From the NCBI GenBank assembly GCA_963677495.2, contig CAXXOU010000004.1, positions 1,056,001 to 1,120,000 of the forward strand: 64,000 nt of DNA, written 5' to 3'. The stretch's first letter is position 1. Every line of letters begins with the position of its first letter. Below, in pieces: positions 9,470-58,500 of the stretch. Below the pieces are notes generated by a model. The model was not told the origin of the DNA, searched no databases, and saw only the letters and a program-made list of their open reading frames with translations. Source of the stretch: Candidatus Cloacimonadales bacterium (GTDB lineage Bacteria > Cloacimonadota > Cloacimonadia > Cloacimonadales > JAFGVF01). Made by a program: the position numbers and the translations under genes.

Positions 9470-10210
9470 GTATCTCTACTTCGCTCAGGGTGACATACAC
9501 AGTGCCATTTGCAATGACTTACCGCATTTCAGGGAGTTTGTCGGCCTGATAAGGCAACGGACTTCCTGAAATGTACTTCGAAGTCGCATGTCCCTGATTT
9601 CGTTCTCGCGTCACGCTATCGCTGCAACGCAAGTCCGAAATTAACATACACAGTGCCATTTGCAACAACTTAGCTACTTTTATTGACCTTTCCACTCTCT
9701 TTTACTGCTCTATCTATCAACGCACTGTGCACGCACTGTGTCCCCACTGTGAAGGCACTGCCAACCCACTGTTTCACTGGGTGCACAGTGGGAAAACAGT
9801 GGGATGACTGCGATTTGCTGGATGGTTTAGTGAAAGCGAGAAGCAATACTACCTTGAAAATGGTCCTAAGACCTTTTCAATGGTGCTCTTGTAATGTAAA
9901 CCGATCCACTCTTGGTTGATTGAACCAGACCAAAAACCATTTATACGACCCCTTCTGGGTCGGATTTTTGTTGTATATCTAACCATAGGCTGCACCTATG
10001 GCTAATTAAACTTATACCTCTTTGAGGTAGGCATTATTCCAGCAACGCAATTCCGAGTTGTGTAACAAGACAAACCGACACAGTCGGTTAAGTCCATATA
10101 TGAACGCATCAACTGCGTAGATGCAACTGCAAGATGACTAAGGAAGAAGTGATTCGCAACGAAGTGTGAATCGCTAATTCCAGGAACTCGAAGTCTGATT
10201 CGTATTTCTC
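9470..10210. repeat. Mosaic of REP-like hairpin modules in the secA/skp divergent intergenic region
   Basis: Modules recur elsewhere: 9599-9638 ~ 33211, 33845, 58203(rc); 9851-9886 ~ 33716, 55073; 10069-10098 ~ 41574; 10106-10200 ~ 33119; local direct repeat ACATACACAGTGCCATTTGCAA at 9494 and 9645. Confidence 0.8.
9723..9801. repeat. 11-bp periodic inverted array (core CACTG/CAGTG)
   Basis: CACTG at 9723, 9734, 9745, 9756, 9767; CAGTG at 9786, 9797. Confidence 0.9.
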
Positions 10211-10498
10211 ATCCAAAAAGAGCATTCTCTATCAATTTTAGAATAACTGTTATATGATGATTTATAAATTATATACCATCTATTACCTAAAGTACTTTCT
10301 CTAACAATGTTCTCAAACTAATACATATCAATAAGAATACTAGCTGACATTGTAATTCTTAAACAAACATATTGGTCTTAAGATTGATACCGACTTTAGA
10401 ACGGTCTTATATATACATATAAAGTGTTGATATTTTTGTTTGACTAATTAGTCTTACTCCTAAAACTTGCGAAAATGTATTAAAATAGTGGAGGACTA

Positions 10499-11077
10499 AT
10501 GAAAAAATTAGTATTGATGCTGGTCTTAACAACTCTGTTAACGGTTGGCTTAGTAGCAAAATCTCAAGAGATAGCATATGTAGATATAGACGCAGTTATC
10601 ACACGTTGTAATGACACACAAGAAATCCAAAGAGCTTTTGATTTAGAACGCCAAGAGTGGGCAAATCAACTTACTGACCTTGAAAATGAAATTACAAGAA
10701 TGGAAACAGATTTCGAAACTCACAAACTTACTTACAGTGCTTCAGGACGTTCTGAACAGGAAAAGAAGATTGAAGATAAGAAAGCTGAATACAGAACAAT
10801 GGTTGAAAACTTCTTTGGTGAGAATGGAATTGCAGCTCAGAGATATCAGGAACTTGTAGAACCAGTTCAAAACAAGATTCTTGAAGTGATTCAAGACATT
10901 TCTATCCAGGAAAACTATTCATTAGTACTTAACGTTAGCGCCGGTGGCATACTTTATGCTACTCAAGAGATGGACATCACTGACATGGTTATCCAGAGAA
11001 TGGATGCTGATAGTGGTCAGATTGCTCCTGCTGCTACTGATGTACCTAAAGCTGATGACAAAGGCGGAAAGAAATAG
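10499..11077 (+). CDS. skp: OmpH/Skp periplasmic chaperone
   Basis: Signal peptide, IAYVD, coiled coil, ILYA...DITD; directly upstream of lpxD. Confidence 0.88.
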   Translation: MKKLVLMLVLTTLLTVGLVAKSQEIAYVDIDAVITRCNDTQEIQRAFDLERQEWANQLTDLENEITRMETDFETHKLTYSASGRSEQEKKIEDKKAEYRTMVENFFGENGIAAQRYQELVEPVQNKILEVIQDISIQENYSLVLNVSAGGILYATQEMDITDMVIQRMDADSGQIAPAATDVPKADDKGGKK

Positions 11078-12121: not shown

Positions 12122-12125
12122 TTTT

Positions 12126-13520: not shown

Positions 13521-13529
13521 AGGAGAGTC

Positions 13530-14303: not shown

Positions 14304-14322
14304 TACTATTTTAATATACATT

Positions 14323-14820: not shown

Positions 14821-14826
14821 AGTTTT

Positions 14827-14850: not shown

Positions 14851-14939
14851 ATTATATCCACCATGTAACTGTCGCTCAAGCTCAACCATTAAGAAGGTAC
14901 ATATCACTCCAATATCGGATGAATCAAATCATTGATATC

Positions 14940-15359
14940 TTATACAGCAGGTAACAGCTCATTCTCAACAGCCATTTTGATAGTAATAACCGGCAAATTA
15001 AGAGCAACAACATACTCCGGTGTTATTGTCTTTAGATCAACTTCGGGATAGGCTTTGTGCAGGTTATGCATCATTTTGATAAATACGTTGTAACCATTAT
15101 AAATAATGCCTTCACCGACTCTGATGTTGTTAAGCCTATTCGAATAATGTTTGATATCACTCTTGTAACTATCAGTGCAATTCTTATAAAACTTACTAAG
15201 ATTCTTGGTTTTAAGAGAAAAGTTCGAGTTATTCTTATTTTTTCTTGGTTTCACATAAGTTCGTGCTATAAGTGCATCACTCTGCGGATAGTAATAAAAT
15301 ACAAGTTTTCCGACTCTACCGTTCAAAGTCTTTGCTATCAAATCTAAATTTACTTTCAT
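14940..15359 (-). CDS. Small basic hypothetical protein (MKVNL..LNGRVGKLVFYY), possibly nucleic-acid binding
   Basis: GGAGG RBS before ATG 15359; Lys/Arg/Tyr-rich N-terminus. Confidence 0.7.
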   Translation of the reverse strand: MKVNLDLIAKTLNGRVGKLVFYYYPQSDALIARTYVKPRKNKNNSNFSLKTKNLSKFYKNCTDSYKSDIKHYSNRLNNIRVGEGIIYNGYNVFIKMMHNLHKAYPEVDLKTITPEYVVALNLPVITIKMAVENELLPAV

Positions 15360-15519
15360 TGTTTCCTCCAATTCCTTCTCAAAAAGGTTTTCGTTTAATA
15401 ATTACAGGCTATAGGCTTTTAGCTATCAGCTAAAAAACCTTCCTCTATAATTATATGTGTGAAAAATGAGAGATTCCGTGAAAAAGTATGCATTTTTTTT
15501 GAATAAAGTCTTCATTCCA

Positions 15520-15592
15520 CCCTTAGATTTCTCATGCCCCACTCTCGACCCTCCCTTGCAAACCCAAGGGAGAGCCAAGGGAGGGGCAAGGG
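15520..15592. repeat. 11-bp periodic inverted array (core CCCTTG/CAAGGG)
   Basis: CCCTTA 15520, CTCATG 15531, CTCTCG 15542, CCCTTG 15553; CAAGGG 15565, 15576, 15587. Confidence 0.85.
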
Positions 15593-15635
15593 AGGCTTCT
15601 GGATTTCAGGTTGACTTCCGGCAAGGTATTTGTTC

Positions 15636-15662
15636 TGTAAAAGCTTTGTAAAAGCTTACAAA
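15636..15662. repeat. Short 11-bp periodic palindrome (TGTAAAAGCT)
   Basis: TGTAAAAGCT at 15636 and 15647, followed by TACA. Confidence 0.6.
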
Positions 15663-15765
15663 ATATGCAATTAATTATGAATGTTTCCTCGAGAGTGATA
15701 TCAATCGATCCATTCTTATCTGCTTCTACGCTCCCTTTCAATTTTTACTCAACTTTTCTGGTTAC

Positions 15766-15850
15766 GTTGCTTATTACTTGTTTTTTTTCTTGGGCATTTA
15801 CTCAAGTATTGCTTAACTGTTTACCAAGGATTACCCAAGAGACTCTCAGG
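15766..15850. repeat. 11-bp periodic inverted array (core CTTG/CAAG)
   Basis: CAAG at 15803, 15825, 15836 and CAGG 15847; CTTG 15777, 15789; resembles 33391-33463. Confidence 0.7.
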
Positions 15851-16021
15851 AAATGTATTAGAGTATGGAGGGTTGTAAGTGCAAGGGGTATGAAATTGAT
15901 ACACGAAAGATTAGTAGACACTAACTGTTGGTTAAACTTGTTTAATTAGACTAGGGATTGCCCTGTGATTATTTATAGTTTAATAATATTTATAGTATTA
16001 TCTACTGGGTGTAATATAAAA

Positions 16022-26738: not shown

Positions 26739-26984
26739 CTTACGCATAATTCCGGTCACTTGTGTGAGTTTAAGAGCATAGGGAATTGGAATTAAATGTT
26801 TATTCACTCCGAAGTCGCAAGAAGTTGGTTGTCGGTTCACCGAACTCCCGATGCTGGTTGTAATGTCTTATTGATTGTCATCCCGATAGTTTAATGCAAT
26901 CGAGTTAATACTTTTGCTATCCTGACGTGTAAGAAGACTATTGATTCGTGGATTATTAAACCTTGTCATTTACTTGTATGGGAT

Positions 26985-29900
26985 TTAGTTCTCCTCGAAC
27001 ATAATTAAGAAATCTTGCTTTATGGAATTAAAAGATAAAAACCTATGATTTAACTCATCACTTTCTAAGTAGCTGACGGGAATTATTTGATTTGTTAAGA
27101 ACATATACTTAAGCTTATACTCACTGACACTATCAAGAGAGAGTGAATCCCCAAGTAAATCAATATTTGCATTTAACCATTTTTCTCTTGCAGTTACTTT
27201 TTTATCCCAAGGAATAAACTTCTTTAATTCCCCATACTGTTCATATGGAGTTTTTGCAAGAATCAACTGCTTACATTCTAAGGCAATGATAAATTTTCTC
27301 TCTTTTGAGACGATGATTATATCAATATCTCCAAGATCCTTTTTAGATTTCAAAACACTTGTTGGACATATTTTCATTTCTTTTTCAACGATGAACTCAC
27401 TACTCTGATATTTACTAAGGAAATTGTAAACATCTTCATTAAAGTGCTTTCCCCTTAAATCATTTACTCTTCCGATGTACGAGATCATAGTTTTGCTTCT
27501 TGCTTTATATTTACCAAGGGTTATTGCCTCTGAAAGGTAGTACATTGAGTCTTGAAGCTCACGAGCTCCGAAACAAATCTGTTCAATTCCATTTTTATTC
27601 AACAAAATATAAGGTTTCATAAATAATGAGAACTTCCTTTTAAATCTCCATGGATGATATTCATATTGCTCATATATCCGTACATCTACATCACTGTTTT
27701 CTTGTGGCTTTAGACTAAATGCCTGAATAATTGCTTCCAATTCTTCTTGATTAAGTTCCGAATCAGTCCTTACTGACCTCTTAAAATCGTTGAAACTATT
27801 TAGATATACTGATCCTTCAAAATTAAATGCAATATCAATGGACTGGGATAGCAAATTGGTATAACTATCATAAGAAAAACCAAATTCCGATAAGAAAGCA
27901 ATCTTGAATTTTTCTTCATCAACACTTTCCTGCAATTTAAAGGGATTATATGCTTCTTTTGAGAATATGATCCTTTCCTCAAATTTATCTTTAAAATACA
28001 TTCTTTTGCTTTCTTTGTAGTCATAACTAATACCCAACCTACCAGATTTCAGCAATTTAACCCTAGGGTTATCAATATTGTAATAAATACTATCCCTAAT
28101 TGAAGCCCACTCAATAACATTTATCATATATGCAATTGCTTTGTCGAAATCTTTTTGATTAAATGTACTATCTCCGGAATAATTCATATAGATTGCTTTC
28201 TCGATAAGACATCTTATTGCTATTGAGACTTGATTGTTACCTTTGTCTTCTGAGATTAATTTATTTTTCACATCAACATCTTCAATAAAACATTCGATTT
28301 TTGATGCGAGAGACTTATTGAACCACATCCTCCTTTGAATTGATGATTCGTAATACATCAAGAATATCGAGACAACATCATTTACATCATATCTTTTCAA
28401 AATTTCTTCTAAACCATCAGTATAAAATTCAACAGCTTGTTTTAACTCTTCTAAGCAATCTTCTCTTCCTAAAATCTGTCCTTCAGCCTTTCCTACATTC
28501 CTTAACAACAATCCGAAATCATCAATTTGTGAGTTTAAATAATAACTTGGCAGTTTCACATAATCGCTTAAGTTTTCGGGACTTAGTCTACAATCATCTT
28601 GACTGTTATATAGAAAGAGCATTTTTTTTGATCCCAAAGGTAAACAACAATCTAATATACTCTGAATATTTAAAGTTACTTGAGAAAACTGCTCAAACCA
28701 TTTCATGAAATATTGGAATACTTCTGACATTATGCTTTTTTCAAATGAGTTATCTGATTTTGTAAGTCTAAGAATAAGGTATTCATCAAGCTCAATCAAT
28801 AGAGTGTTTTCTTCAAGATGGAATTTCCCAAGACAGGCAGGGGGATTTTTTTCTTCCAAACCAATGTTAGCTTTAAGACTCTTTGGTTGAAAACTGATGT
28901 TGAAGTTTAACTTATTTTCTACAGCAATCTGATCTTGATTAAATCTCTTTGATAAAGAATACATCCAGTAAGCAACGCATCTGGACAGTTCATGCATGAT
29001 TTGTTTGTTTATTGTTCCATTCTCTTTAGTTGAAAGTCTGTATTGAATAAAGACATTAACTCCTAATACTTCTGTTAGTACAAAATATGGGAGATTAGGA
29101 CTATACCAGGATGAATAGATAGGAAGAATAGATGGGTATTCAATTCTAATAACAGGGACATATATATTTTGTCCTTGGTACTTATATTGAACAAGGTGCT
29201 TATCTTGTGCATTGATTGTATCAAATTTCATGCTTAAAGCTGTACCGACTCCAACACTAATTGAACTAGAGGTGCTTTCATCCGATATATAGAAGCTGTT
29301 ATCGTTATCCAAAAACATCGCTATGTTATCAAGAATAAAAGGGGTTATGTAAGTTAATTTTTGACTTGCCTCTAAATAATTCCAAATTGAAAATTTAGTA
29401 GTAGCCTGATGTTGAAATATAATGTTTAAATCATTAAGTGCTAATATTATGCTGTCCTTAAAACCATCAATTTCCACAAAATGATCTATTGAAGATAACA
29501 ATGAGAATCCTCTACCGATACCATTGATAATGGTCAACCGGTAAATCTCATAATTATTGAAGCTCTTATCCTTTTGAAGTCCCTTAAGCAGGTTTTCTCT
29601 TCTCTTGGATATTTTTTGGGCTTCTTTTTCATCAAGTTCATGAGTATCTGTCATTATTGGATTGCATGGGTCTATCTGGGAACAATCATCGAGAATGTAT
29701 TCTAAATATAGTATTTTATTAGAATCAAAGCCAAAGATGCCATCCATAACAGGCAATTTTGTGGATGAAATTTGATAATCTTGAAGCGCATATCCTTTAT
29801 TCTGAAGAAGTTGAACTATCCTCTTCCAAGAATGTTGTTCATATAAATCTTTTACTGAGTGCAGAAATCCTAGTCGTATAGCATTATACCAAATATTGTT

Positions 29901-30785
29901 TAAACAAGCATAAATAATTGTTGTTGGACCAATAAGAATATAATAATTCCCTTTTTTTACTATTGGTCGTTGTAAAATGGGATTTGTAAAATTGTCATCA
30001 TTCTGTAAGAGTGGATTACCTAAATCTAAAACAAAATCATCAATCCATTCATTTTTAAATTCATAATCATTAAAGATTGAACTAATGACTTCTTTAGTAA
30101 GGATTAATTGTTTGCTTAACTCGATCAAAGTGATATTTTCAGGAATAGTAATTGCCCGATCAAGTTCATATTCTACAAACATATTTCTACTATGCTTCAT
30201 AGATTTAGCTAAATAGTTAGATATCGATAATAAAAGATATGTAGGTCCTAGAATCGATAGTTTTATTTCTTGTGTTAGACAACTTTTATCACGGAATATG
30301 GAATCTATCAATTGTTGTAGTATAAGTACCTGTCCTTCTGCGATACCTGTGTACACAATTCTATTACCAAAAGGAGTCATAATATTCTCTGTAAAAAGAT
30401 TTTCAGGTGGATCCTCAAGATGGTGTGATGGAAAATTTTTATGAATGATTTCTCTTAACTCATTAGAGCTAATTTTTTTGAGAGCTCCTTTATCGGATAT
30501 AAGTGCTTGCCGAGTAATTTCTTCTAATCTAATATTTTTGCTATGATTCTTAGGAGTTATATGTAGAATGCTAAGCTTTGAAAGCAAATCAACATTATCG
30601 TAAGTTGAGAAAAAACCTGTAACATCTTTAATTTCAGACTGAATTAAATCTTCTTCATATCTGTTGAAAGCTTCATCTATGTCATTCTTTAGTATAAAAG
30701 ACTGGCAATTTACAAGGCAACAATATTTATACTTTTTTCCGCTACCACATGGGCATTTTTCATTTCGACCAACTGTTTTTGTCAT
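26985..30785 (-). CDS. Large protein with N-terminal SEC-C motif and C-terminal PD-(D/E)xK nuclease-like motif
   Basis: [26 protein letters not shown]...ALECK near the C-terminus. Confidence 0.75.
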   Translation of the reverse strand: MTKTVGRNEKCPCGSGKKYKYCCLVNCQSFILKNDIDEAFNRYEEDLIQSEIKDVTGFFSTYDNVDLLSKLSILHITPKNHSKNIRLEEITRQALISDKGALKKISSNELREIIHKNFPSHHLEDPPENLFTENIMTPFGNRIVYTGIAEGQVLILQQLIDSIFRDKSCLTQEIKLSILGPTYLLLSISNYLAKSMKHSRNMFVEYELDRAITIPENITLIELSKQLILTKEVISSIFNDYEFKNEWIDDFVLDLGNPLLQNDDNFTNPILQRPIVKKGNYYILIGPTTIIYACLNNIWYNAIRLGFLHSVKDLYEQHSWKRIVQLLQNKGYALQDYQISSTKLPVMDGIFGFDSNKILYLEYILDDCSQIDPCNPIMTDTHELDEKEAQKISKRRENLLKGLQKDKSFNNYEIYRLTIINGIGRGFSLLSSIDHFVEIDGFKDSIILALNDLNIIFQHQATTKFSIWNYLEASQKLTYITPFILDNIAMFLDNDNSFYISDESTSSSISVGVGTALSMKFDTINAQDKHLVQYKYQGQNIYVPVIRIEYPSILPIYSSWYSPNLPYFVLTEVLGVNVFIQYRLSTKENGTINKQIMHELSRCVAYWMYSLSKRFNQDQIAVENKLNFNISFQPKSLKANIGLEEKNPPACLGKFHLEENTLLIELDEYLILRLTKSDNSFEKSIMSEVFQYFMKWFEQFSQVTLNIQSILDCCLPLGSKKMLFLYNSQDDCRLSPENLSDYVKLPSYYLNSQIDDFGLLLRNVGKAEGQILGREDCLEELKQAVEFYTDGLEEILKRYDVNDVVSIFLMYYESSIQRRMWFNKSLASKIECFIEDVDVKNKLISEDKGNNQVSIAIRCLIEKAIYMNYSGDSTFNQKDFDKAIAYMINVIEWASIRDSIYYNIDNPRVKLLKSGRLGISYDYKESKRMYFKDKFEERIIFSKEAYNPFKLQESVDEEKFKIAFLSEFGFSYDSYTNLLSQSIDIAFNFEGSVYLNSFNDFKRSVRTDSELNQEELEAIIQAFSLKPQENSDVDVRIYEQYEYHPWRFKRKFSLFMKPYILLNKNGIEQICFGARELQDSMYYLSEAITLGKYKARSKTMISYIGRVNDLRGKHFNEDVYNFLSKYQSSEFIVEKEMKICPTSVLKSKKDLGDIDIIIVSKERKFIIALECKQLILAKTPYEQYGELKKFIPWDKKVTAREKWLNANIDLLGDSLSLDSVSEYKLKYMFLTNQIIPVSYLESDELNHRFLSFNSIKQDFLIMFEEN

Positions 30786-31551: not shown

Positions 31552-31608
31552 AAATATAAAACAAAGATGAATGAGTGATTTGTCTCCTTTACATCACATC
31601 TATTCCCT

Positions 31609-31646
31609 GTTAGCTTGCCGTTAGCTTCCCGTTAGAAACACGTTAC
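31609..31646. repeat. 11-bp periodic array (core GTTAG)
   Basis: GTTAG 31609, 31620, 31631; GTTAC 31642; downstream ~70 bp resembles 58660-58730. Confidence 0.85.
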
Positions 31647-31776
31647 AGGAAGCGAGAATTGCATTAGTACTAGATGATGAAAAGATGCAAGATAGATTTA
31701 CTATGTGAAAGTGCAATTTCATTGACAACAATCTCCAACGCATTAGAAAGTAGATAATAATCTAAAAGGACGTTTT

Positions 31777-33000: not shown

Positions 33001-33390
33001 TAGCCACTGATTTCTCTGATTAATCAGATGATGTGTACTCCGAAGTACACGTCGAACTATTTGTAGGGGCTCAACATTTTGAGCCCATTTTTTCGATTAT
33101 ATGAGTGCTATATGGACTGCATCAACTATGTAGATGCAACTGCAAGATAACCAAGGAAGAAGTGAATCGCAGCGGAGTGTGATTTGCTAATTCCGGTACT
33201 CAAAGCCCATTTCGTTCTCGCGTCATGCTATCACTACAACGCAAGTCCGAGTCAATTCCTCCGAATTGCACCATTTGCAAGGTCTTTGACCATTCCAAAG
33301 GTACAAGTCTAATTGTCAATAGCAGAAGCTCGAGTCCCCCTACTCCCAGCAGTAATTCTTGATTCCATAATAGTATTCTCTAAACAACAA

Positions 33391-33463
33391 CTTGATCATT
33401 TCTTGGCATTTAACCCAAGGATTACCCAAGTGTTTCTCAAGGGTTTCTCAAGTGTCTCTCAAG
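33391..33463. repeat. 11-bp periodic inverted array (core CTTG/CAAG)
   Basis: CTTG 33391, 33402; CAAG 33416, 33427, 33438, 33449, 33460. Confidence 0.9.
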
Positions 33464-34049
33464 AATTACAGCTGAGGACCAGAGGGAAAGTAGAATCAGT
33501 AGATGCTATTACTATCGCTTTTAATCTGCCCTCTCACTCCTCTGCATTAATTATTAAGTTAAACTAATCTCTATCCATTCTAAAACCGTATCCAAATCCT
33601 ATTATTCGATAATAACATTTCAATAGGGTTTCAATAGGTGTCTCTTACCTGAGGGGTTGATGATTGTAGCAGGACGGATGACCGGGGAAATGAAACTGAT
33701 GAAGGATTGCATTCTACCTTGCGAATGGTCCTTAGACCTTCTCAATGGTGCTCTTAGGAAGAAGTGAATCGCAGCGGAGTGCCTGAGAAGCCTTAGCTTC
33801 AGCGTAGGTTCTTGATTTGCTAATTCCCGGTACTCTAAGCCCGATTCGTTCTCGCGTCATGCTATCGCTACAACGCAAAGTCCAAGAAAATCCCTCCGAT
33901 TTGCACCATTTGCAAGGTCTATGACCATTCCAAAGGTACAGGATAAAGTGTCCTATACCTGAAGCTCGAGTCCAAGCGAAACATGTCAAAAAATTTATCG
34001 AGACTTGCAATTCACTGCCAAAAAGACACACTCCCACAGATAGATTTCA

Positions 34050-34120
34050 CGTACCTGAAAGGTAGCCCCTCCCGTAGCTACCTACGGGAGGGCTACGGAT
34101 GGGCTACGCGAGACCTACGG
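34050..34120. repeat. 11-bp periodic inverted array (core CGTAG/CTACG)
   Basis: CGTAC 34050, GGTAG 34061, CGTAG 34073; CTACG 34082, 34093, 34104, 34115. Confidence 0.9.
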
Positions 34121-34229
34121 GAGGGGATCGCAGGTTTGGTAAAGATTTGGAGGAAAAAAACATTCATTTATTGACATGGAAAGAATAAGTAATATGGGTG
34201 GCATAAACCGATTTCAAAAAGGGGTATAA

Positions 34230-36048
34230 ATGACTGAATTACATAAAACAGACATCTATAAATATACAAGAAAAAGCGAATATGATTTGGAATATCGCTG
34301 ATATTATACAAGGAACCTTCAAACCACATCAATATGGATTAGTTATTCTGCCTTTTACTGTTTTAAAGAGATTGAATGATACTCTTATGCCTACTAAGGA
34401 TAAGGTTTTAGAGAAATTTGAAGAGATAAAACATTTGGAAGTTAAAAGTGGCTTTTTAGAGAAAGCTTCCGGGTACTCTTTCTATAATACGAGTAAGTTT
34501 ACCTTTGAGAATCTGGTGAATGATTCTGAGAATATTGAAGATAATTTCAAAGACTTTCTTAACGGTTTTCTCTGAGAATGTGCAGGATATCCTAAAGAAC
34601 TTCGAGTTTATGGGGAACCATAAAGAAGTTGATTGGCTCAACAAAGCATGAGGGACAAGCTGTTCTATGTGATTCAGGAGTTTAATAAACCTCAGTCTTA
34701 TTTAGGTGCTGATAAAATCACAACTGTTTGACATGGGATATGTCTTTTGAAGAGCTTGTGCGTAAGTTCTCCGAGAGTTATGATGAGGATGCAGGGACAG
34801 CACTTCACGAGTAGAGATATTATTTATACTATGACAGACCTGCTGGTCGCTGAAGATGCCGATGCCCTTACTCAAGAGGGAGTTGTGAAGACTGTCTATG
34901 ATATGGCGATGGGGAAACAAGGTCAGATGCTTACCTGTATGGAGGAACGCTTACGACAATTGGATGCAGATGCAGAGATTACCTCCTTTGGACAGGAGAT
35001 AAACCACGAGACTTACTCTATTGCTAAGTCCGATGCGATTATTAAGGGAAGTTCTGCTGAGAACATGCGTCTGGGAGATACTCTTGCCAATGACCAGTTT
35101 TTGCAGGCTTTGAGTTTGATTATGTTATCTCTAACCCTCCCTTTGGAAGAGATTGGAAATCAGCGAAGAAAACTGTAGATACTGAACATAAGAAGGGCGA
35201 AGACGGAAGATTTGCTCCCGGACTACCAAAAAATATCAGATGGTCAGATGCTCTTTACGATGAATGGAATTAAGAAAACTGAAAGATTCCGGTAAGATGG
35301 CTATTATTCATAACGGCTCCCCTCTTTTTACAGGAGATGCAGGCTCAGGTCCTTCCGAGATTAGAAGGTACATAATAGAAAATGACTGGTTGGAAGCGAT
35401 TGTACAGCTACCTAATGATGTGTTTTATAATACAGGGATTAGTACCTATATTTGGGTAATCTCGAAAGAGAAACCGAGTCATAGAATTGGTAAGATCCAG
35501 CTAATCGATGCCTCCAAGATGTTTGAGAAACGCAGGAAAGTCGATTGGGAATAAACGAGTTGATATAAACAGTTGCTTGCAGAAAAGCGATTGTGCAAGC
35601 CTTTGGTGATTTCACTGATAAGCTCTATGAGTATGATAATGGTAAAACAGGTTGAATCACGCATCTTTGAGAATGAGGATTTTGGTTATTACAAGATTGT
35701 GGTGGAGTCTCCTGAACTTGATGAACAGGGCAATAAGGTTCTGAAAAAGGGGGAAACCGGTTTGCAGATACGAAGAAAAGAGACACTGAGAATGTGCCGA
35801 TGCAGAAGAGTCGTGATGAAAGAGAAGTGATTGAGGAATACTTCCAAAAAGAGGTTGTTCCCTTTAATCCCGATGCCTGGGTTGACTATAAGAAGACCAA
35901 GCTTGGTTATGAAATCCCCTTTAACCCGTCCACTTCTATAAGTATGTAGCTCCTGAACCATCTGAGAAGATAGCGGAACGCATCAGTGCTCTGGAAACAG
36001 AACTGATGGCATCTCTTAAAACCCTCTTCTCCGATGAGGAGGGAATAA
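34230..36048 (+). pseudogene. hsdM: Type I R-M methyltransferase HsdM, multiply frameshifted as written (probably sequencing error)
   Basis: Fragments across frames: IWNIAD..YGLVILPFTVLKR, GQHFTSRDII, SNPPFG (35130), IHNGSPLFTGDAGSG, FYNTGISTYIWV, KLGYEIPF. Confidence 0.88.
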
Positions 36049-37332
36049 TGCCTCGCAAGATGAAAGATAGCGGAATTGAATGGATTGGAGAGATTCCGGA
36101 AGGGTGGAGTGTTACCAGAAATAAAAACTCTGTTTCGTGAAAGAAAAGAGGTAACTGTAAATGGAGATGATGACTATGACCTTTTAGCAGTATCAGAGTA
36201 TTACGGAGTAGCTAGAAAAGCTGATGTAATAAAATCAGATGAATTTCTGACAAGAGCTAAGTCATTAACAGGATATAAGGTTTGTAGAATTAATGACTTT
36301 GCAATGAACATTATGTTAGCTTGGAAAAAAGCTTATGGGATAAGCTCTTATAATGGAATAGTTAGCCCATCATATGCTGTGTTTGAACCTACAATGAAAT
36401 ATTGTACCCAATACTATCACTACTTATATAGAACTACATTATATTCTGGTTTATTTAAAAGTAACTCTACTGGAATTATTGATTCAAGATTGAGATTGTA
36501 TCCAGATGTATTTCTTTCTCTTTCCTCGCATTATCCCCCTCTCCCTACCCAAACCCGAATAGCAGAATACTTAGATCGAAAGGTGGCATTGATAGATTCG
36601 ATAATTGAGAAGACAAAACAGACAATTGAGGAGTATAAGGCATATAAACAGTCACTGATAACTGAGGTTGTTACCAAAGGACTCAATAAAGATGCCAAGA
36701 TGAAGGACTCCGGGATTGAATGGATTGGGGAGATTCCGGAGGGGTGGGAAGTGAGAAGAACGAAGTACTTATCTCCTGTGTTAAGAGGAGCAAGCCCTCG
36801 ACCGATTCAGAGTGAGAAGTATTTCGATGTAAATGGAAGCTATGTCTGGACTCGTATAGCTGATGTCTCAAAGTGTACAAAATATTTTGATAAAGATTCT
36901 GAATATATGTCTGAACTAGGTGAAAGTAAATCAGTAAAATTGGAACCGGGAGAATTATTCCTTAGTATTTGTGCTACTGTAGGTAAACCAATTATTACTA
37001 AAGTCAAGTGTTGCATCCATGATGGTTTTGTGTACTTCCCTTTATTGAAACCCAAGTATGTGGATTTACTATTTTATATTTTTGAGAATGGTTCATGTTT
37101 CGGTGGACTTGGAAAAATGGGAACCCAGCTAAATCTTAATACAGAAACTGTAGGCGGTATTCATTTACCTATCCCAGAAGATAATGAACTAGGAAGAATA
37201 ATAAATCGATGTGAACGGATTAGTATTGATATCTTAGAAATTATCGAAAAGAAGATGAGATTTATCACAGAGCTTGAGAGTTATAAGAAGTCACTTATAT
37301 ATGAAGTGGTAACAGGTAAGAAAGAGGTGTAG
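36048..37332 (+). CDS. hsdS: Type I R-M specificity subunit; true start ATG 36048 with one +1 frameshift near 36120
   Basis: MKDSGIEWIGEIPEGW occurs at 36060 (different frame) and again mid-protein; two TRDs; KSLIYEVVTGK end. Confidence 0.9.
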
Positions 37333-41509: not shown

Positions 41510-41603
41510 CCCCTCACCTTAATCCTCTACCCAAAGGGGCGAGGAGAATGAGCCATTTTACTAAGTACCACATGACAAACCGACTCAGTCGGTTAAATCC
41601 ATA
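41510..41603. repeat. REP-like hairpins
   Basis: CCCCTCACCTTAATCCTCTACCCAAAGGGGCGAGGAG, and GACAAACCGACTCAGTCGGTTAAATCCATA (also at 10069). Confidence 0.7.
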
Positions 41604-42904: not shown

Positions 42905-45252
42905 TGGACTATATAAAGCAATTAGAATACGATAAAATAAAAGCTATTTTAGCTGAAGAATGCCAATCCGAAGTCGGAAAGGCTATTGCTCTAAAGCTAA
43001 GACCGGAGCGTAATAAACCGGCAATTGAGTTAAAACTAAAACGTGCTCATGAAACTATTGAGCTGCACTCTTATGGGCATTCAGTTAACTTCGAAGAACT
43101 CACTGTTATCGATGATATCTTTGAGGAACCTTTCCATGGTGTTCTCAACTTTGAAGAGTTTCAGGCTATCTGCAGAAATGTAATTACTTCAAATCTGTTA
43201 AAGAGTTGTGAGGAGGAGTTCAGACCTTACGAACTTACTTCTAAACGACTAAATAAAATCTTAGGTCTTCCCCACATCGAAGAGAAGTTTAAAAAGACTT
43301 TCGGACCGGAAGGTGAAGTACTTGATACAGCTTCCGGAAACCTTAGAAGTATTAGAAGAAACAAGCAGAAGACCAGAACTGATATCATGAAGATTCTTAA
43401 TCGAAAGCTGAATGATTCCGGTTCTCAGAAGTTTATTCAAGAGAAAATAATAACCCAACGTGATGATAGATATGTGATTCCAATTAAGGAGAGCTCTGCC
43501 CCATTTGTTAAAGGAATTGTTCAAGGACGCTCAACGAGTAAATCCTCTGTATATGTAGAACCGGAAGAGGTTGTTGGAAGTAATAACACACTCAGACTCT
43601 TAGGTGAACAGGAAAAGCAGGAGATTTATAAGATTCTAAAAGAGTTCACAGGGATGATTTTAGAAGCTAAGGATGCAATCCTTGAAAACACTAAGATCAT
43701 GGCTGAGTTTGATTACTATTTTGCGATTGCTCGCTATGCAAAAACATTTAAGGCTGAGATCCCTAAACTCGTTGAAGAAGCAAGAATTAAACTAATTCAT
43801 GCAAGACACCCACTCTTGATACATCAGTTCAAGAATATTCAGAAAGTTATCCCATTTGATATGGAATTGGGTGAAGATTACAACCTTCTAATACTATCCG
43901 GACCAAACACAGGTGGTAAGACTATCACAATGAAAGCAGTTGGTTTGCTTACAATGATGGCTCTATCCGGTTTACCTATACCGGCTGATGAGGATAGTGA
44001 GATTGGCTTGTTTAAAGCCTTCTATACAGATATTGGTGATGGTCAGTCCTTAGAAAACTCATTAAGTACATTCTCTTCACATATTGCAAATATCAGGTTC
44101 ATGCTCGAAAAAGCACGTGGTAGATCTTTAGTCTTAATCGATGAGATTGGTGCTGCAACTGATCCTGAACAGGGTTCTGCGATTGCACAAGCAGTACTCG
44201 AGACACTTGCCCGAAAGAATGTGAAAGGTATAATCACGACCCACTATACTGCATTGAAGGTATTTGCTGAGCAATCTAAAACATGTATGAATGCATCGAT
44301 GCAGTTTGATTCTGAGAAACTTACACCTACATATAAATTCGTACCGGGATTACCCGGTGATAGCTTCGCGATTGAAGTTGCTGAGAATCTTGGAATGAAA
44401 AAGGGTTTCATTGATAGAGCTAAAAAGTTAGCCGGTACTCAGAATATTGAGTTCACTGAAATCTTAAGCAAACTGGAAGAGCAGAAGAAACTGCATGCCA
44501 GACAGAAGTATGAGTTTGAGCTAAAGACTAGATTGTATGAAAAGAAGATAGATGAGCTAAATGATAAGATCGAGCAAGTTGAAGAGGAAAAAACAACGAT
44601 ACGCAAGAAAGCTCTGAAAGATGCCAGAAACTACCTGACAACAATGCAGAAAGAGCTGAACAACGACTTAACTGAGATCAGAAAGCTTGATAAGCAGGAG
44701 CGTAAAGAAAAGAGCAAACAATCTCTTACTAAAGTAGTTCGACTTCAGAAGAAGATAAAAGAGGAATTTGAAGAGATTGACCCACAGGGTCGAGGAAAGA
44801 TAAAGAACCCTAGAATTGGTCAGAAAGTATGGTTGGCAAACTTCGAAACAGAAGCCTTAATAACAGATCTTAAAAATGGTAAAGTTATTGTTGACATGGA
44901 TGGAATCGCTTTCACTACTGAAGTTGGAAATCTGTATACTCCAAACATCCAAGCAGACCCTAAGAAAAGTGAAGCATTAGTTCGTCAACCTGATACAACT
45001 GAGAAAAGTTTTAAAACAGAATTGAAATTGCTTGGACTGACTTTCTCCGATTCTCAGCCTTTGATTGATGAATTTATTGATAATGCAGTTCTTGGTGGTC
45101 TCAATAAGTTACGCATTGTTCATGGTAAAGGTACAGGAGTTCTCAGAAACAAGGTTAGATATTATTTAAAAAGGATGAAGCAGGTAAAATCAATTCACAC
45201 TCCATCTGCAGATGTTGGTGGTGATGGTGTTACTGTCGTGGTATTGAAATAG
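42904..45252 (+). CDS. mutS2: Endonuclease MutS2
   Basis: SGPNTGGKT, STFSSH, DEIGAATDP, Smr domain IVHGKGTG. Confidence 0.95.
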   Translation: MDYIKQLEYDKIKAILAEECQSEVGKAIALKLRPERNKPAIELKLKRAHETIELHSYGHSVNFEELTVIDDIFEEPFHGVLNFEEFQAICRNVITSNLLKSCEEEFRPYELTSKRLNKILGLPHIEEKFKKTFGPEGEVLDTASGNLRSIRRNKQKTRTDIMKILNRKLNDSGSQKFIQEKIITQRDDRYVIPIKESSAPFVKGIVQGRSTSKSSVYVEPEEVVGSNNTLRLLGEQEKQEIYKILKEFTGMILEAKDAILENTKIMAEFDYYFAIARYAKTFKAEIPKLVEEARIKLIHARHPLLIHQFKNIQKVIPFDMELGEDYNLLILSGPNTGGKTITMKAVGLLTMMALSGLPIPADEDSEIGLFKAFYTDIGDGQSLENSLSTFSSHIANIRFMLEKARGRSLVLIDEIGAATDPEQGSAIAQAVLETLARKNVKGIITTHYTALKVFAEQSKTCMNASMQFDSEKLTPTYKFVPGLPGDSFAIEVAENLGMKKGFIDRAKKLAGTQNIEFTEILSKLEEQKKLHARQKYEFELKTRLYEKKIDELNDKIEQVEEEKTTIRKKALKDARNYLTTMQKELNNDLTEIRKLDKQERKEKSKQSLTKVVRLQKKIKEEFEEIDPQGRGKIKNPRIGQKVWLANFETEALITDLKNGKVIVDMDGIAFTTEVGNLYTPNIQADPKKSEALVRQPDTTEKSFKTELKLLGLTFSDSQPLIDEFIDNAVLGGLNKLRIVHGKGTGVLRNKVRYYLKRMKQVKSIHTPSADVGGDGVTVVVLK

Positions 45253-46976
45253 TGGAACAATCCCTAATAGAAGAGATAAGACAAGCCAATAACATTGTTG
45301 ATGTTATCAGTAGCTATATTCCAATCAAAAAGAGCGGAGCCAGCTTCAAAGCTTTATGCCCTTTCCATGATGATAAACATCCTTCTATGATGATTAGTCC
45401 ACAAAAACAGATATTCAAATGCTTTGTTTGTGGGAAAGGTGGTAATGTATTCACCTTTGTTCAAGAGTATGAGAAAATCACCTTTATGGAAGCCGTAAGA
45501 AAGCTTGCTGAGCGAGTTGGTATTACAATCAAAGAAACAAAACAAGCTAAGGTTGTCAGAACCCGTAATCAATTACTGCTTGAAGTTTATGATTCAACTA
45601 AAGAGTACTTTAAGAACAATCTCCATAAATTTGGTGACTCTGTTTTAGAATATCTTGTCAACCGGGGAATTGATAAGGATGTAATTACTAACTTCGACAT
45701 TGGGTACTCTTTGAATAGCTTTACCGGATTAAAAAGCTATCTTTTAAAACAACACTTTGGTACTGATATCCTGAAAGAATCCGGCTTATTTGGTTTTAAC
45801 CAGAATGGGGCTTTCGATCTGTTTAGAGAACGACTGATGTTTCCTATTCATTCCGCCAGTGGTAAAGTAGTTGCTTTTGGTGGAAGAAAACTGAGTGATG
45901 ACCAACCCGGTGGAAAATATATTAATTCCCCAACTACTCCTCTTTATACAAAGGGTAGGGAGTTGTACGGATTCTTCTTAACAAAGTTTGAGATAAACAA
46001 GCTGGATTATGCAATAGTCTGTGAAGGTTATATGGATTTTTTACGGCTTTACAGTTCCGGTTATAAGAACTGTGTTGCTTCTTTAGGAACTGCACTTACT
46101 GAGGACCAACTCAAACTATTGAAGCAGTTTTCTACCAGAATATATATGGCTTATGATGGAGATGATGCAGGAGTTAAAGCTGCAATACGCGGAGCAACAA
46201 TAGCATTAGGTGCAGGTTTCAAACCATTCATTATTGAGATGCCTACCGGTGAGGATCCTGACAGTTTCCTCTTGAAAAACGGGAATGAGAGCTTTAAAAC
46301 CCTTATTGAAAAAGCCTTACCATTTGTAGAATTCTACTCCTCTACAAGTAAAATAAAACTTGACAAAAAGGGTAGAATTAATGATTTACTTCAAGTCTTA
46401 AATAGCATCTCAGATGAGATTGCAAAGGACTTATTAATAAAGGAGATATCGGATTCCTTTAAAGTTAAGGAGAGCTCAATTCGGAAGAGCCTGTCAGGCA
46501 AATCCCGTAGAAGAGATGAACCTCAACAAGAGAATAAGTCTAATGTAGTTTCACGATTCACAGAAGAGAAATATGCTTTAATTGCAGCATTGAATGGGAA
46601 TTTGTTTGAGCATCTATTAGAAGAGGTGGATGAGAGCTATTTCTTTGTCGAAAAGTATAGAAATATTTTTGATTTCATAAATATGAATTATAATGATATT
46701 ATAGGGATTAATGAGCCTTCAGCTATTCTGAACCTCACAACAGACCCTGAAATACTAAGTACATTAAGTGAATTAATCTATGAGGAGTCACCTAAAGCTC
46801 CCATTGATAAGTTCATTATAGAGATGAAGCTTAGAAGACTTAAAGAAGACTTTGAAGTGGTGAGTAATAAGATTGCCCTGAACCCTGATGACACTGAACT
46901 GTATAAGGAAAAAGAGTATATACGCACCCAGATACGATTACTTGGAGCCCAAGTGATCAGTAAGACATTACATTAA
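45252..46976 (+). CDS. dnaG: DNA primase (GTG start)
   Basis: CPFHDD..CFVC zinc finger, KYINSP, EGYMD, YDGDDAG, DPD. Confidence 0.96.
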   Translation: MEQSLIEEIRQANNIVDVISSYIPIKKSGASFKALCPFHDDKHPSMMISPQKQIFKCFVCGKGGNVFTFVQEYEKITFMEAVRKLAERVGITIKETKQAKVVRTRNQLLLEVYDSTKEYFKNNLHKFGDSVLEYLVNRGIDKDVITNFDIGYSLNSFTGLKSYLLKQHFGTDILKESGLFGFNQNGAFDLFRERLMFPIHSASGKVVAFGGRKLSDDQPGGKYINSPTTPLYTKGRELYGFFLTKFEINKLDYAIVCEGYMDFLRLYSSGYKNCVASLGTALTEDQLKLLKQFSTRIYMAYDGDDAGVKAAIRGATIALGAGFKPFIIEMPTGEDPDSFLLKNGNESFKTLIEKALPFVEFYSSTSKIKLDKKGRINDLLQVLNSISDEIAKDLLIKEISDSFKVKESSIRKSLSGKSRRRDEPQQENKSNVVSRFTEEKYALIAALNGNLFEHLLEEVDESYFFVEKYRNIFDFINMNYNDIIGINEPSAILNLTTDPEILSTLSELIYEESPKAPIDKFIIEMKLRRLKEDFEVVSNKIALNPDDTELYKEKEYIRTQIRLLGAQVISKTLH

Positions 46977-48893: not shown

Positions 48894-49028
48894 TAAATAA
48901 AAGTCCACCTTGTGTGGGCTTTTTTATAACTATTACTTTTGCTAAATAAAAGTCCACCTTGTGTGGGCTTTTTTTATAACTACCACTTTGGTGAATAAGT
49001 AAAAAGTCCACTTTCTAGTGGACTTTTC
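48894..49028. terminator. Three tandem bidirectional terminator hairpins
   Basis: AAAAGTCCAC...GTGG(G/A)CTTTT at 48899, 48948, 49002. Confidence 0.8.
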
Positions 49029-49047
49029 TTTATTATACGAAACTCTC

Positions 49048-54531: not shown

Positions 54532-54533
54532 AT

Positions 54534-54950
54534 TTACTCACCAATAATCTTAACTAAAACTCGTTTCTTACGTTTTCCATCAAACTCCCCATAGAAGATC
54601 TGTTCCCATGGTCCAAAGTCTAACTCACCATTCGTAATTGCTACAACCACTTCCCTACCCATGATTGTCCGTTTAAGATGAGCATCACCATTATCTTCAT
54701 ACCCATTATGATGATATCTGGAATAAGGTTTCTCAGGTGCTAGTCCCTCCAACCAGTTCTCAAAGTCCTGATGAAGACCCGGTTCATTGTCATTTATGAA
54801 AACCGAAGCAGTTATATGCATAGCATTTACGAGGCAAAAACCTTCTTTAATCCCACTTTCTCTTAAACAACCCTCTACATCTCTGGTTATATTAATAAAA
54901 TCTCTTCTTCGGTCTGTTTTGAACCATAACTCTTTTCTATAGCTTTTCAT
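54534..54950 (-). CDS. yjbQ: YjbQ/UPF0047 family protein
   Basis: [25 protein letters not shown]. Confidence 0.92.
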
Positions 54951-55069
54951 TATATCTCCTTATTTCTCAATATCTCTAAGAAATAAACATATTGTAAAGA
55001 AGTTTCCAAGGAGTTATTCATACTCATCACAAATAGGGTTTGAACGTAGATGTGTCTCGTCACGAAACA

Positions 55070-55625
55070 AAGACCTTCGGAATGGTCGTTAGACCTTGCG
55101 AATGGTTGTACTTCGAAGATAAATCAATTGACCAGGGGTGGATCAATTTACATTACAGGAGCATCATTGAGAAAGTCTGTATACAACTATTATTGCCACT
55201 TTTCGCATTTCCCCATACTCCTATTAAGTCGTACAGGTGACTGCTTCCCAATTCCGGTCACCTGTGCGAGTATCGAGCTTGGGGAAATGGAATTGAATTA
55301 GCAAGGACTCGTGCTTTGTTTGTTTTATGCTAACCCTGAAAGGGTTACATATGAGTAGCCCCGAATGCAATTCGGGGTAGCGAATTACACACAGGAATCG
55401 ACAACTCCAACGGAGTTGAATTTATGTATTTATGCCAAATTCGACCCCATTGGGGTCGTTGTTTTCTAGGATTTACAACTATGCATTGATACATAGCTAC
55501 TCACATTTAATCACTCAGTGATTAGTCCTACCTCTGCCTACTTTCATACAAGCTCGCGTCCAAAGGAGTTTGCGACTTCGACGCCAAGCTATGGAGTGCA
55601 CCAACTACGTAGGTGCGTTTTGTCA
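55070..55625. repeat. Mosaic of REP-like hairpin modules
   Basis: AACCCTGAAAGGGTT, CCCCGAATGCAATTCGGGG, ACTCCAACGGAGT hairpins; 55439-55573 ~ 58366-58500; 55250-55294 ~ 26748 and 58306. Confidence 0.85.
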
Positions 55626-55694
55626 CACAACTATAATTTGCCATGTCACGCTATTCACCCAACTCCCATTCGGTCGCTATGGTGCCAGCTTAAG

Positions 55695-57929
55695 CTATTT
55701 CATCAATATCATCTTCTTAGTCTTTGTATAAGTCCCAGCCTGTAGCTTATAGAAATAAATCCCTGAAGCTACTTTAACTCCATTATCATCATCACCATCC
55801 CAGATAATACTATGTTCTCCGGATGGCATCTCTTCGTTTACTAATGTCTTAATTCTTTGCCCTTTGATGTTGAATACTGCTAGCTTGATGTTTCCTCTTC
55901 TGGGGATACTATAGTTTATCGTTGTAGTTGGATTGAATGGGTTAGGATAGTTAGATATTTTATACGTAGAACTTAGTAAGTAATCATTGTCGATGCCAAC
56001 AGGATTCCATTCATGACAACCAATATCTATTTGCCCTCCATATATTCGTGGATGACCAGTTAGGTCAAACTCTGGAAGTTCAACACCTTCCGGCATAACT
56101 AGAGTTCCATTATCAATTGCAGGGGATAGTGAAGACAGAAAGTAGTATCCTTCACTAACATCCCATAAAGGATTGTCATTCATATTGTTTTCTTGCCAAT
56201 CGACAAAGCTCTGACCAATATGTGCGATATTCCCCTCTCCTCCCTGAATTATTGAGTTTCTTACGAACAATGATTCCTGATAAGTTTGATTATTCATCAC
56301 TATTTGATATAGTGTATTCCCATATAATATTGAGTTAACAATGTTCAATTTAGATACTGTAGCAACAGATATAGCAGCTCCCCAGAATGAATCAGCACTA
56401 TTATTTGCTATTGTTGAATTAATTAAATTACATCTTGCAGGTGTAGGGTAGTTTCCGGAAGATATTGTTAACCCGACACCACTAGTATTCCATTCAGAAT
56501 ATGTTTCTATATTATTAACTACCTCAGTGTTCACAATATTCATCAAACTACCGTTATATGTGTTTAAAACAATACTGGAATAACTGAAGACATCTGGTGA
56601 GGAGTATTCAACATTATCATATATTCTGGTGTTTGATATTGAAGAATCGTCACAATAATGAAATTTTAATGCACCCCATGAACTGCAATCATGAATTCTT
56701 AAATTGTTTACATCACCACTACTATATATCATGTAAACAGGTTCTCGAGAACCCATATAGTTAGATAAATCAACATTGTCGATCTCGAAATCTATCGCAT
56801 GGTGGAGGTGGATTCCTTGAGTGTCATAACCATTTATTAGTGATAAGTTTCTAATCCCAACATTTCTATCACGATAGGTCGATCGAAAGAAACCTGTAAT
56901 AGATTCAGCATCAAGTATCGTACCGGTATCTGATTCACCAATAATACTTACATTATCCTTTAATTGGATCGGAAAAATCTGTTGATTTAGGCTTTCAGAA
57001 TAGACACCATCTTCAACATGTACTGTTCGATGTGTTAAACTATCTGAATCTACTTTTAACATTGCATATGCTATCGTTTTTAGGGGAGAACTAGGTGATT
57101 CACCACTATTATTGTCATTACCTGTTGTTGAAACATATATGTCAGATGCAACTTCGTCAACCACATGATTCTGTATCATGAACTCGAACCTGCTTTCTAA
57201 AGGGAACATAGGTTCAGAGTATCCGTCTGTTGGGAAAGCATGGTAAATTGTTGGATTTACTACAGTAAAAGTATCAACATATACTGTCTGAGTGGGGCAA
57301 TTAGGAGTACTAAACAAGTCGTTCCCTGTTCCAGCATAATTAAGATATACACTATTAATATTTGATGCTCCAAAGCTGACATTTGAATCACATAAATAGA
57401 AACCACCACCAAAAGTACTAGCAATATTCTTTTTTACGGTAGTATTTCCAAGACTCAAAAATGAGCTATCAAGTAGAATCCCACCACCATAATCTGCTCT
57501 ATTATTCTTTATTACACAATTAAAAACCCTAATACTTGAATCCTCAGCTCTAATTCCTCCACCTACAAAACATAAGAAATCAAAAGTACCTGAACCATTT
57601 CTAATTGTAAACCCTTCGATTTGAATCCAGTTAGTATCGATTATGTTGATTACGCTTCCGGTTCTGTTCCCATCAAGTACAGTATTCGCAATATCCATAG
57701 GATCATGAGACTCATGAAAATCACTGATAATTGTTATATCTTTCTCTGTAACAGTAAGATTCTCATAATACACTCCAGGATGCACTAAGATAGTATCGTA
57801 ATTGTTCGCAGAATCAATAGCATCTTGGATTGTAGTATAATCTCCTGTTCCATCTTCAAAAATTTCGATTACCACACAAAACATCTTGTTAACAAATAGA
57901 ATCATTAATAGAGCAAAGTTGATTTTCAT
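55695..57929 (-). CDS. Secreted beta-helix (pectin-lyase-like/DUF1565) protein with C-terminal sorting domain
   Basis: YTTIQDAID..VHPGVYYE, YVSTTGNDNNSG..PLKTI, NYPNPFNPTTTI...SGIYFYKL...KKMILMK; AGGAG before ATG 57929. Confidence 0.85.
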   Translation of the reverse strand: MKINFALLMILFVNKMFCVVIEIFEDGTGDYTTIQDAIDSANNYDTILVHPGVYYENLTVTEKDITIISDFHESHDPMDIANTVLDGNRTGSVINIIDTNWIQIEGFTIRNGSGTFDFLCFVGGGIRAEDSSIRVFNCVIKNNRADYGGGILLDSSFLSLGNTTVKKNIASTFGGGFYLCDSNVSFGASNINSVYLNYAGTGNDLFSTPNCPTQTVYVDTFTVVNPTIYHAFPTDGYSEPMFPLESRFEFMIQNHVVDEVASDIYVSTTGNDNNSGESPSSPLKTIAYAMLKVDSDSLTHRTVHVEDGVYSESLNQQIFPIQLKDNVSIIGESDTGTILDAESITGFFRSTYRDRNVGIRNLSLINGYDTQGIHLHHAIDFEIDNVDLSNYMGSREPVYMIYSSGDVNNLRIHDCSSWGALKFHYCDDSSISNTRIYDNVEYSSPDVFSYSSIVLNTYNGSLMNIVNTEVVNNIETYSEWNTSGVGLTISSGNYPTPARCNLINSTIANNSADSFWGAAISVATVSKLNIVNSILYGNTLYQIVMNNQTYQESLFVRNSIIQGGEGNIAHIGQSFVDWQENNMNDNPLWDVSEGYYFLSSLSPAIDNGTLVMPEGVELPEFDLTGHPRIYGGQIDIGCHEWNPVGIDNDYLLSSTYKISNYPNPFNPTTTINYSIPRRGNIKLAVFNIKGQRIKTLVNEEMPSGEHSIIWDGDDDNGVKVASGIYFYKLQAGTYTKTKKMILMK

Positions 57930-58019
57930 ATAACTCCTTACATATACCGAATATGTTATTTGTAATAAGCATATTTGGTTTGTCAAATGGTTTATCTAAT
58001 TGCCATTTGTTTGTTTGCG

Positions 58020-58500
58020 AAACCCTCGGCTTTCAATATATCACTTACATCCTTACAGGGCTCTCTAATTTTGGGGATTATTTACCCTACACTCACGTAT
58101 AGGGCTATTAAACAGTAGCTCCTTCCGAGCTAAAACCTAGTAATCATCTGTACCTTTTGAATGGTCCAGATCTTCAGAAGAGTGCACTTCGAAGGAACTA
58201 ACTCAGACTTGCGTTGCAGCGTTAGCGTGGTGCAAGAACGAAACAGACTTCGAGTACAGGAATTCGACCTGCACCACAACGAAGTGTGGGGCGGGAATAA
58301 ATCACAATTCCTGTCACCTTGTGAGTTTACGAGCTTAGGGAAATGGAATTGTCTGTTTATGTCATATTCTACCCCGTTTGGGTCGTTGTTTTTTGGGGAT
58401 TTACAACTATGCATTGCATACATAGCTACTCACATTTAATCACTCTGTGATTATTCCTGCTTCTTCCCACTTTCACAAGCTCGCGTCCATTGGAGTTTGC
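58020..58500. repeat. Mosaic of REP-like hairpin modules
   Basis: Reverse copy of 9599/33211 module at 58203-58242; copies of 55073, 55250 and 55439 modules. Confidence 0.85.

Follow-up and report, generated by a model that had tools for sequence, protein, structure and literature searches.

The module described here is a short palindromic element that recurs in the intergenic gaps of a 64-kb stretch of DNA from a Candidatus Cloacimonadales bacterium (64,000 nucleotides of contig CAXXOU010000004.1; hereafter, the window). It folds as one long hairpin, its copies are scattered among unrelated genes, alone, in inverted doublets or in clusters, and in related genomes it occupies a REPtron-like position around genes for Y1 tyrosine transposases. 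Most probably, it is a non-autonomous mobile repeat of the repetitive extragenic palindrome (REP) type, spread by a Y1 enzyme, with the 11-bp arrays of the same gaps forming a separate repeat family. A first-pass annotation of this DNA had read the module as a double hairpin, made it the constant end of a unit whose variable payload was the arrays, and guessed at an enzyme of the HUH/RAYT type (RAYT: REP-associated tyrosine transposase). The guess about the enzyme was supported; the double hairpin and the payload were not.

Fold and dispersal of the hairpin

The half-site of the module, ACCTTNNNAATGGT, was matched 12 times in the window and never in 100 shuffles. Ten of the 12 matches paired up as five full modules, which a covariance model scored at 51.6-55.2 bits, everything else in the window scoring 16 bits or less. 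Six copies had been annotated: five were found to be full and exact, and the sixth (58152, plus strand) has, as described, a degenerate second half. A lone half-site on the minus strand had been overlooked. An Rfam scan of the window at the gathering score returned two tRNAs only, and the module matched no RNA family. The copies are listed below; those called full hairpins are of the probable REP type.

9851..9884, plus strand: full hairpin with the NNN pair GAA/TTC (covariance model, 52.7 bits), between divergent genes whose translations suggest secA-like and OmpH-like products
14885..14898, minus strand: lone half-site downstream of tRNA-Ala (covariance model, 14.7 bits, E 0.066), probably a remnant
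33270..33302, minus strand: full hairpin at the head of a composite repeat of about 160 bp, 33180-33337 (covariance model, repeat comparison)
33716..33749, plus strand: full hairpin, left half of an inverted, REPIN-like doublet with 33905-33937 (covariance model, fold-back)
33905..33937, minus strand: full hairpin, right half of this doublet and head of a second composite copy, 33813-33973 (covariance model, fold-back, repeat comparison)
55073..55106, plus strand: full hairpin in array-free surroundings (covariance model, 55.2 bits), with a decayed partner in inverted orientation after it, at 55124-55178
58152..58185, plus strand: degenerate second half, in a decayed copy of the composite repeat, 58149-58264 (covariance model, 13.9 bits); 5' side array-free

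The module-headed composite is present three times in the window, and its two copies around 33 kb are 87% identical. The doublet formed by the modules at 33716 (plus) and 33937 (minus) folds back on itself (33700-33950, -44.5 kcal/mol, z -5.4).

A GTDB scan with the full module gave at least 108 loci, mostly from Cloacimonadota; the counts that follow are among the matches listed. By their accession prefixes, these loci come from 37 genomes: 31 of Cloacimonadota or its genera, four of Bacteroidota and two labeled "uncultured bacterium". Seven overlapping loci were dropped, leaving 101 non-overlapping loci (480,523 bp), 28 of them shorter than 750 bp. The window DNA itself matched listed Cloacimonadota loci at 76% (the best) and 70%.

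The fold was established from 123 distinct copies, five of them from the window. Five of the six annotated copies form one long stem by pairing of their two halves. The NNN of half 1 is matched to that of half 2, and the result is a single stem-loop of 33-35 nt with two bulged T. The three variable positions were Watson-Crick paired in 114, 113 and 112 of the 123 copies. Among 34 distinct NNN combinations, 80 of 102 pairs formed, compared to 35.5 in shuffles (none of 10,000 reached the observed value), and the two NNN were identical in only one combination. A further covariation test and the energy test were made on 78 copies selected for distinct NNN and loop. Double-sided changes occupied 84 cells in this set, versus 24.3 after shuffling and at most 12 in slid controls, and in every one of the 78 copies the long stem had a lower folding energy than two small hairpins (mean -8.5 versus +0.7 kcal/mol). 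Because the NNN halves covary and the long stem wins energetically, the module is read as a single stem. The double hairpin, which none of the 78 copies favored, was rejected on both grounds.

The stem is built from two copies of one half-site, lying as direct repeats 19-21 bp apart. Like REP and REPIN elements, the module is a short palindrome that folds into a stem-loop, and it is multicopy and extragenic: the window holds five full copies in 64 kb, and 111 of 119 listed copies lay outside open reading frames (ORFs) of at least 150 aa, although 80.5% of the sequence of the long loci falls within such ORFs. Most copies (81/119) were single, and 24/119 had an inverted partner within 250 bp, as in the window doublet. 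For 67 copies with a gene on each side, the neighbors were co-oriented in 40 cases, divergent in 14 and convergent in 13. Within 150 bp past a stop codon, the module stood on the strand of the gene in 31 of 41 cases; this bias suggests strand-biased insertion or a secondary RNA role. Scanning the first 330 aa of the 121 nearest ORFs revealed many unrelated kinds of protein, four matches to Y1_Tnp and no integrase.

Two of the listed copies, each of 33 nt, appear in frame within coding sequence (L089, 301-333; L013, 4001-4033), and the L089 frame resembles a DNA methyltransferase by eye. In a single case (L072, 2357-3346, minus strand), a reverse transcriptase gene adjoins one copy. We found no literature linking Cloacimonadota to REP, tyrosine transposases or 11-bp repeats, in a search that left most subscription papers outside.

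Tyrosine transposase genes flanked by the hairpin

The HUH/RAYT guess is supported because six distinct listed loci hold a TnpA-Y1/RAYT gene next to the module (L003, L006, L041, L054, L058 and, in part, L081). The annotation had proposed looking elsewhere for such genes flanked by the module, and hairpins were indeed present on both sides in all five loci with long flanks. In L081 a hairpin lies on the one side of the gene that is covered. This is the arrangement of a REPtron, a stand-alone TnpA-Y1 gene between hairpins; none occurs in the window. Apart from the upstream side of the split L041 gene, the distance from the gene end or open frame to the closest hairpin was 15-120 bp. Only 10.8% of the DNA of the listed loci lies within 300 bp of a module, and by our own arithmetic, with L054 and L058 counted once, the chance of four independent hairpin-flanked Y1 sites is roughly 1e-4.

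In L054 and L058 the hairpin-enzyme unit lies between mutS2 and dnaG. In the window these two genes overlap by one base (45250-45254) with no unit between them. Since they abut in the window and flank the unit in L058, the unit is either an insert or was lost from the window genome. The genomes of L058 and of the window are distant (32-35% identity).

The enzymes are 173-190 aa long and carry the motifs NH[YF]H, [LI]FE and YIHxNP. They have the features of TnpA-Y1 class 2: HUH, a catalytic tyrosine in Y-x-x-x-NP and a PF01797 core. Four of five proteins passed the PF01797 cut-off with HUH and Y-x-x-x-NP intact; the fifth, from L041, is split by a stop codon. Among 120 listed relatives, NHYH was found in 116, LFE in 107 and a HUH-Tyr distance of 60 in 116. 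No helix-turn-helix (HTH) match was detected in the 173-190 aa enzymes. Ten plasmid records contained distant relatives, all below 37% identity (closest, 28-33%); one of these, L109, has a Bac_DnaA_C HTH tail, and its flanks contain no half-site. A search against solved structures returned E. coli TnpAREP (4ER8) at E 0.01 only, plus chance annexin matches.

We compared this system with parts of the published record (PMC6006769, PMC3733652, 10.1101/119735, 10.1101/2021.07.10.451892 and PMC8266576), and what is said of these papers refers to those parts. The closest likeness is to REP/REPIN elements with TnpAREP/RAYT enzymes, that is, the REPtrons exemplified by E. coli RayT and groups 2 and 3: both consist of short imperfect palindromes that are extragenic and occur as singles, inverted doublets and clusters, and both place the hairpin on either side of a stand-alone HUH/Y1 gene. 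The stem is bulged, as in the E. coli REP, where the bulge is required for TnpAREP activity (PMC8266576). Unlike a canonical REP, the module has no GT[AG]G at the 5' foot of the stem, has two symmetric T bulges and derives its stem from two half-site copies. The enzymes also differ from E. coli RayT, to which they are only 23-26% identical, falling below the NF047646 cut-off. Moreover, they carry F in place of W in the W[EQ] motif, which sets them apart from canonical group 2-3 RAYTs.

The motifs point to another group. Subclass 2.1 of TnpA-Y1 (Quentin 2018) corresponds to Bertels group 1 and probably to TIRYT (Di Nocera 2013). It is defined by NH[YF]H, F[QE] and Y[IV]HLNP with a HUH-Y distance of 58-67 (PMC6006769). 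The present enzymes share NH[YF]H, the F for W in the FQ/FE motif, Y[IV]HxNP and a distance of 60, and so agree with the second motif set of that paper in both motifs and spacing; unlike subclass 2.1, they have no C-terminal HTH extension. Their placement in subclass 2.1 would rest on motifs and pairwise identity, not on a tree. No REP-like sequences were reported for subclass 2.1 in the compared part of PMC6006769, nor REPINs for group 1 in that of 10.1101/2021.07.10.451892, whereas the enzymes described here are flanked by multicopy, genome-dispersed hairpins. Subclass 2.6 (Bacteroidetes, atypical hairpins) is similar in enzyme length (median 179 aa), in its untagged dispersed hairpins and in its related host phyla, and differs in its motifs (NH[LIV]H, WQ and a HUH-Y distance near 82, against NHYH, LFE and 60 here). 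A term search of PMC6006769 Table S1, with the 2.6 rows compared in part, did not find the hairpin, the term matches being unrelated repeats. The Figure 9 legend of PMC3733652 mentions "double palindromic TIRs" (terminal inverted repeats), and the hairpin family may be listed in the supplements of that paper. Finally, IS200/IS605 insertion sequences (IS608, ISDra2) offer an analogy in their HUH/Y1 chemistry and in the recognition of an imperfect, subterminal single-stranded hairpin. Unlike them, the present enzymes carry Y-x-x-x-NP in place of the class 1 motif Y-x-x-x-Q, no tnpB was seen beside the Y1 genes, and instead of the two ends of an insertion sequence, hairpin copies are free and numerous.

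Much is already known of REP hairpins and RAYT enzymes, so the basic finding is ordinary. The compared literature ties REPs and REPINs to RAYT groups 2 and 3 and gives none to group 1/subclass 2.1. What is modestly new is a link between a REP family without GTAG and enzymes that have subclass 2.1 motifs but no HTH, subclass 2.1 being reported there as REP-free. These enzymes are flanked by a dispersed, doubly bulged hairpin whose family extends over about 37 genomes of Cloacimonadota and Bacteroidota among the matches listed. With them comes a candidate pair of enzyme and substrate on which two questions could be asked: how cleavage sites are chosen by a Y1 enzyme that has no guide tetranucleotide to rely on, and whether enzymes that lose the HTH also exchange terminal inverted repeats for hairpins.

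The proposed mechanism is as follows. The cognate Y1 enzyme would be encoded elsewhere in the window genome, or would since have been lost. As single-stranded DNA, the module folds into one 14-bp stem with a loop of 3-5 nt and two extrahelical T, one per arm. By analogy with TnpAREP (PMC8266576), the enzyme may bind this folded strand through the bulged T and the constant positions of the stem, nick nearby single-stranded DNA through a 5'-phosphotyrosine link from its catalytic tyrosine, and rejoin the strands. Such strand transfer would spread the hairpin into non-coding gaps. The arrays would be an independent repeat family collecting in the same large, tolerant gaps, and would end up 5' of the hairpin since its own tail or partner takes up the 3' side.

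The 11-bp arrays and alternative explanations

The arrays of the window are specific to their period, with nine clusters at lag 11 and 0-2 at lags 8-10 and 12-15. They are listed below without strand, as a family probably separate from the REP.

9714..9810: array element of CACTGTG units followed by inverted units, not part of the REP
15557-15664: array
15786-15852: array of the same family as 33411-33469; full module not nearby
31602-31647: array of the same family as 58601-58661, in a module-free gap
33411..33469: array (CAAGTGTTTCT), 76% over 68 nt to 15786-15852
33618..33645: weak array (TTTCAATAGGG), 1.9 copies, 15/22 matches
34062..34125: array element containing inverted units (CTACGGGAGGG); a frameshifted hsdM lies downstream
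58601..58661: array (CGTTAGCTCCC), about 420 bp 3' of the 58152 copy, 86% over 44 nt to 31602-31647
62950-63039: array

Array density is about 17 times higher in the window than in the other loci. Several arrays are built as inverted pairs, and most have C-rich DNA before them and G-rich DNA after. Just beyond the 15.5-kb cluster lies a gene for a 143-aa hypothetical protein (14940-15371, minus strand) with no Pfam match. In the Atlas it falls into unnamed Cloacimonadota clusters only, with a weak lead to DUF6266 (0.85, 11% of members), and it is a candidate partner for the arrays, which deserve a study of their own as a separate family.

Several observations weigh against a REP-type repeat that is independent of the arrays. 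The invariant columns of the module were set by the search pattern and prove nothing about recognition. No GTAG-like foot is conserved, as no base exceeded 74/123 at positions -1 to -6; the 3' flank is likewise variable, so that the 123 copies have a conserved tetranucleotide foot on neither side, and the search for a conserved 5' guide among them came up empty. The enzyme was present in only 6 of the 101 non-overlapping loci, and L054 and L058 represent the same insertion site in related genomes. All five proteins matched the NCBIfam RAYT model NF047646 below its cut-off (34.8-79.9 versus 80). Within the 64-kb window no Y1 gene was detected, either by tblastn with five proteins (best E 0.38) or with a profile of 120 relatives. 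Lastly, 4/6 modules of the window have an array within 150 bp on the 5' side and none on the 3' side, and the other genomes, being array-poor (4 arrays in 480 kb versus 9 in 64 kb), test the link between module and array weakly.

The annotated position of the arrays, always 5' of these four modules, stands; their distances of 41, 109, 71 and 131 bp are wider than the 50-110 bp first given. The permutation P for at least 4/6 was 0.009 over all gaps, 0.026 over gaps of at least 400 bp and 0.026 within the own gap, with a cut-off chosen post hoc and with a single 1.2-kb gap holding three of the four cases, two of them copies of one composite. Shared repeat tails occupy the 3' side of all six window copies. 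A 5' bias is therefore expected anyway, because close neighbors must then lie 5'. The same composite occurs with a 5' array (33302 and 33937, minus strand) and without one (58152, plus strand), and no array lies near the 55073 module. Other dispersed repeat families share these gaps (9597-9638, 10097-10193, 26745-26803, 33109-33250, 41570-41603, 55246-55573 and 58203-58500), which makes these regions patchworks of many REP-like elements; the compared part of PMC3733652 speaks of mosaic gaps in which repeat families are interleaved. The coupling of module and array is thus most likely co-location in the same gaps.

A first, unlikely alternative keeps hairpin and array as separate elements and has the hairpin insert preferentially at array edges in the window genome, for example in extruded single-stranded or cruciform DNA. 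The 4/6 coincidence, the inverted-pair structure of several arrays and the L049 locus, which looks like an array element without the module, are consistent with this. The clustering of three cases in one gap, with two from one composite, argues the other way, as do the spread of distances from 41 to 131 bp and the 6/10 arrays of the listing with no module within 150 bp. In addition, seven loci from two Cloacimonadales chromosomes (L005, L049, L052, L061, L063, L080 and L081) have no adjacent array, one of them despite an array homologue. We consider it unlikely that, in this lineage, a guide-less REP system with HTH-less, 2.1-type enzymes picks its landing sites at the edges of 11-bp arrays; if it did, one repeat family would target another through DNA structure.

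It is very doubtful that the module is mainly an RNA element (a terminator or 3' stabilizer) or a double-stranded operator consisting of a pair of direct repeats. The strand preference past stop codons and the direct-repeat spacing of the halves would fit such roles. However, of the 67 copies with two neighbors, 14 have divergent genes around them and only 13 convergent genes, a conserved T-run after the stem was not found, and an operator of direct repeats predicts equal NNN, seen in 1/34 combinations. The flanking of Y1 genes is left unexplained by both roles. A secondary RNA role of the hairpin is possible.

A still smaller chance is given to the annotated constant end with variable payload, in which an enzyme would make or move the arrays as cargo. 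The 5' arrays of the window speak for it, and the RAYT link is real. In the other genomes, a lag-11 score of at least 15/22 was reached on the 5' side of 2/110 copies, which is background (3' side, 2/110; other lags on the 5' side, 1-4/110); the 110 are the copies with 200 bp of flank, 8/118 having too little. The 101 loci contained four arrays only, the nearest 1,849 bp from a module, and no array occurred at any enzyme locus. Array relatives are module-free: cores are shared without modules between 33399-33465 and 15786-15852 (76%) and between 31604-31647 and 58615-58658 (86%). The 9714 array has a homologue in L049, from another Cloacimonadales genome, with no module adjoining, the similarity fading before the module position. 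The array as cargo was largely refuted outside the window genome and by the shared cores. The more eye-catching proposal of a module that makes or carries the arrays was not sustained.

An integron attC-like site can practically be dismissed: the stem with extrahelical bases, the many copies that begin AAC and end GTT, the T at +1 (76/123 copies) followed by purine-rich bases and the strand bias past stop codons recall attC, but the element (33-35 nt, with a 14-bp stem) is shorter than attC sites, whose minimum length is about 57 nt, its copies, inverted doublets included, sit among housekeeping genes in either orientation, and neither one-orientation cassette arrays with a nearby IntI gene nor an integrase among the 121 neighboring proteins was found.

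Other features of the window

At a type I restriction-modification locus, hsdM (34230-36050) is broken into several frameshifted pieces, perhaps through decay or sequencing error; downstream of it, hsdS, hsdR and a RhuM-family gene are intact. A 1266-aa protein (26985-30785, minus strand), in which only an N-terminal SEC-C motif was recognized, lies in a low-GC stretch of acquired appearance. Finally, a terminator-like hairpin is repeated three times in tandem (48894-49032, spacing 49-54 bp) after tRNA-Met.

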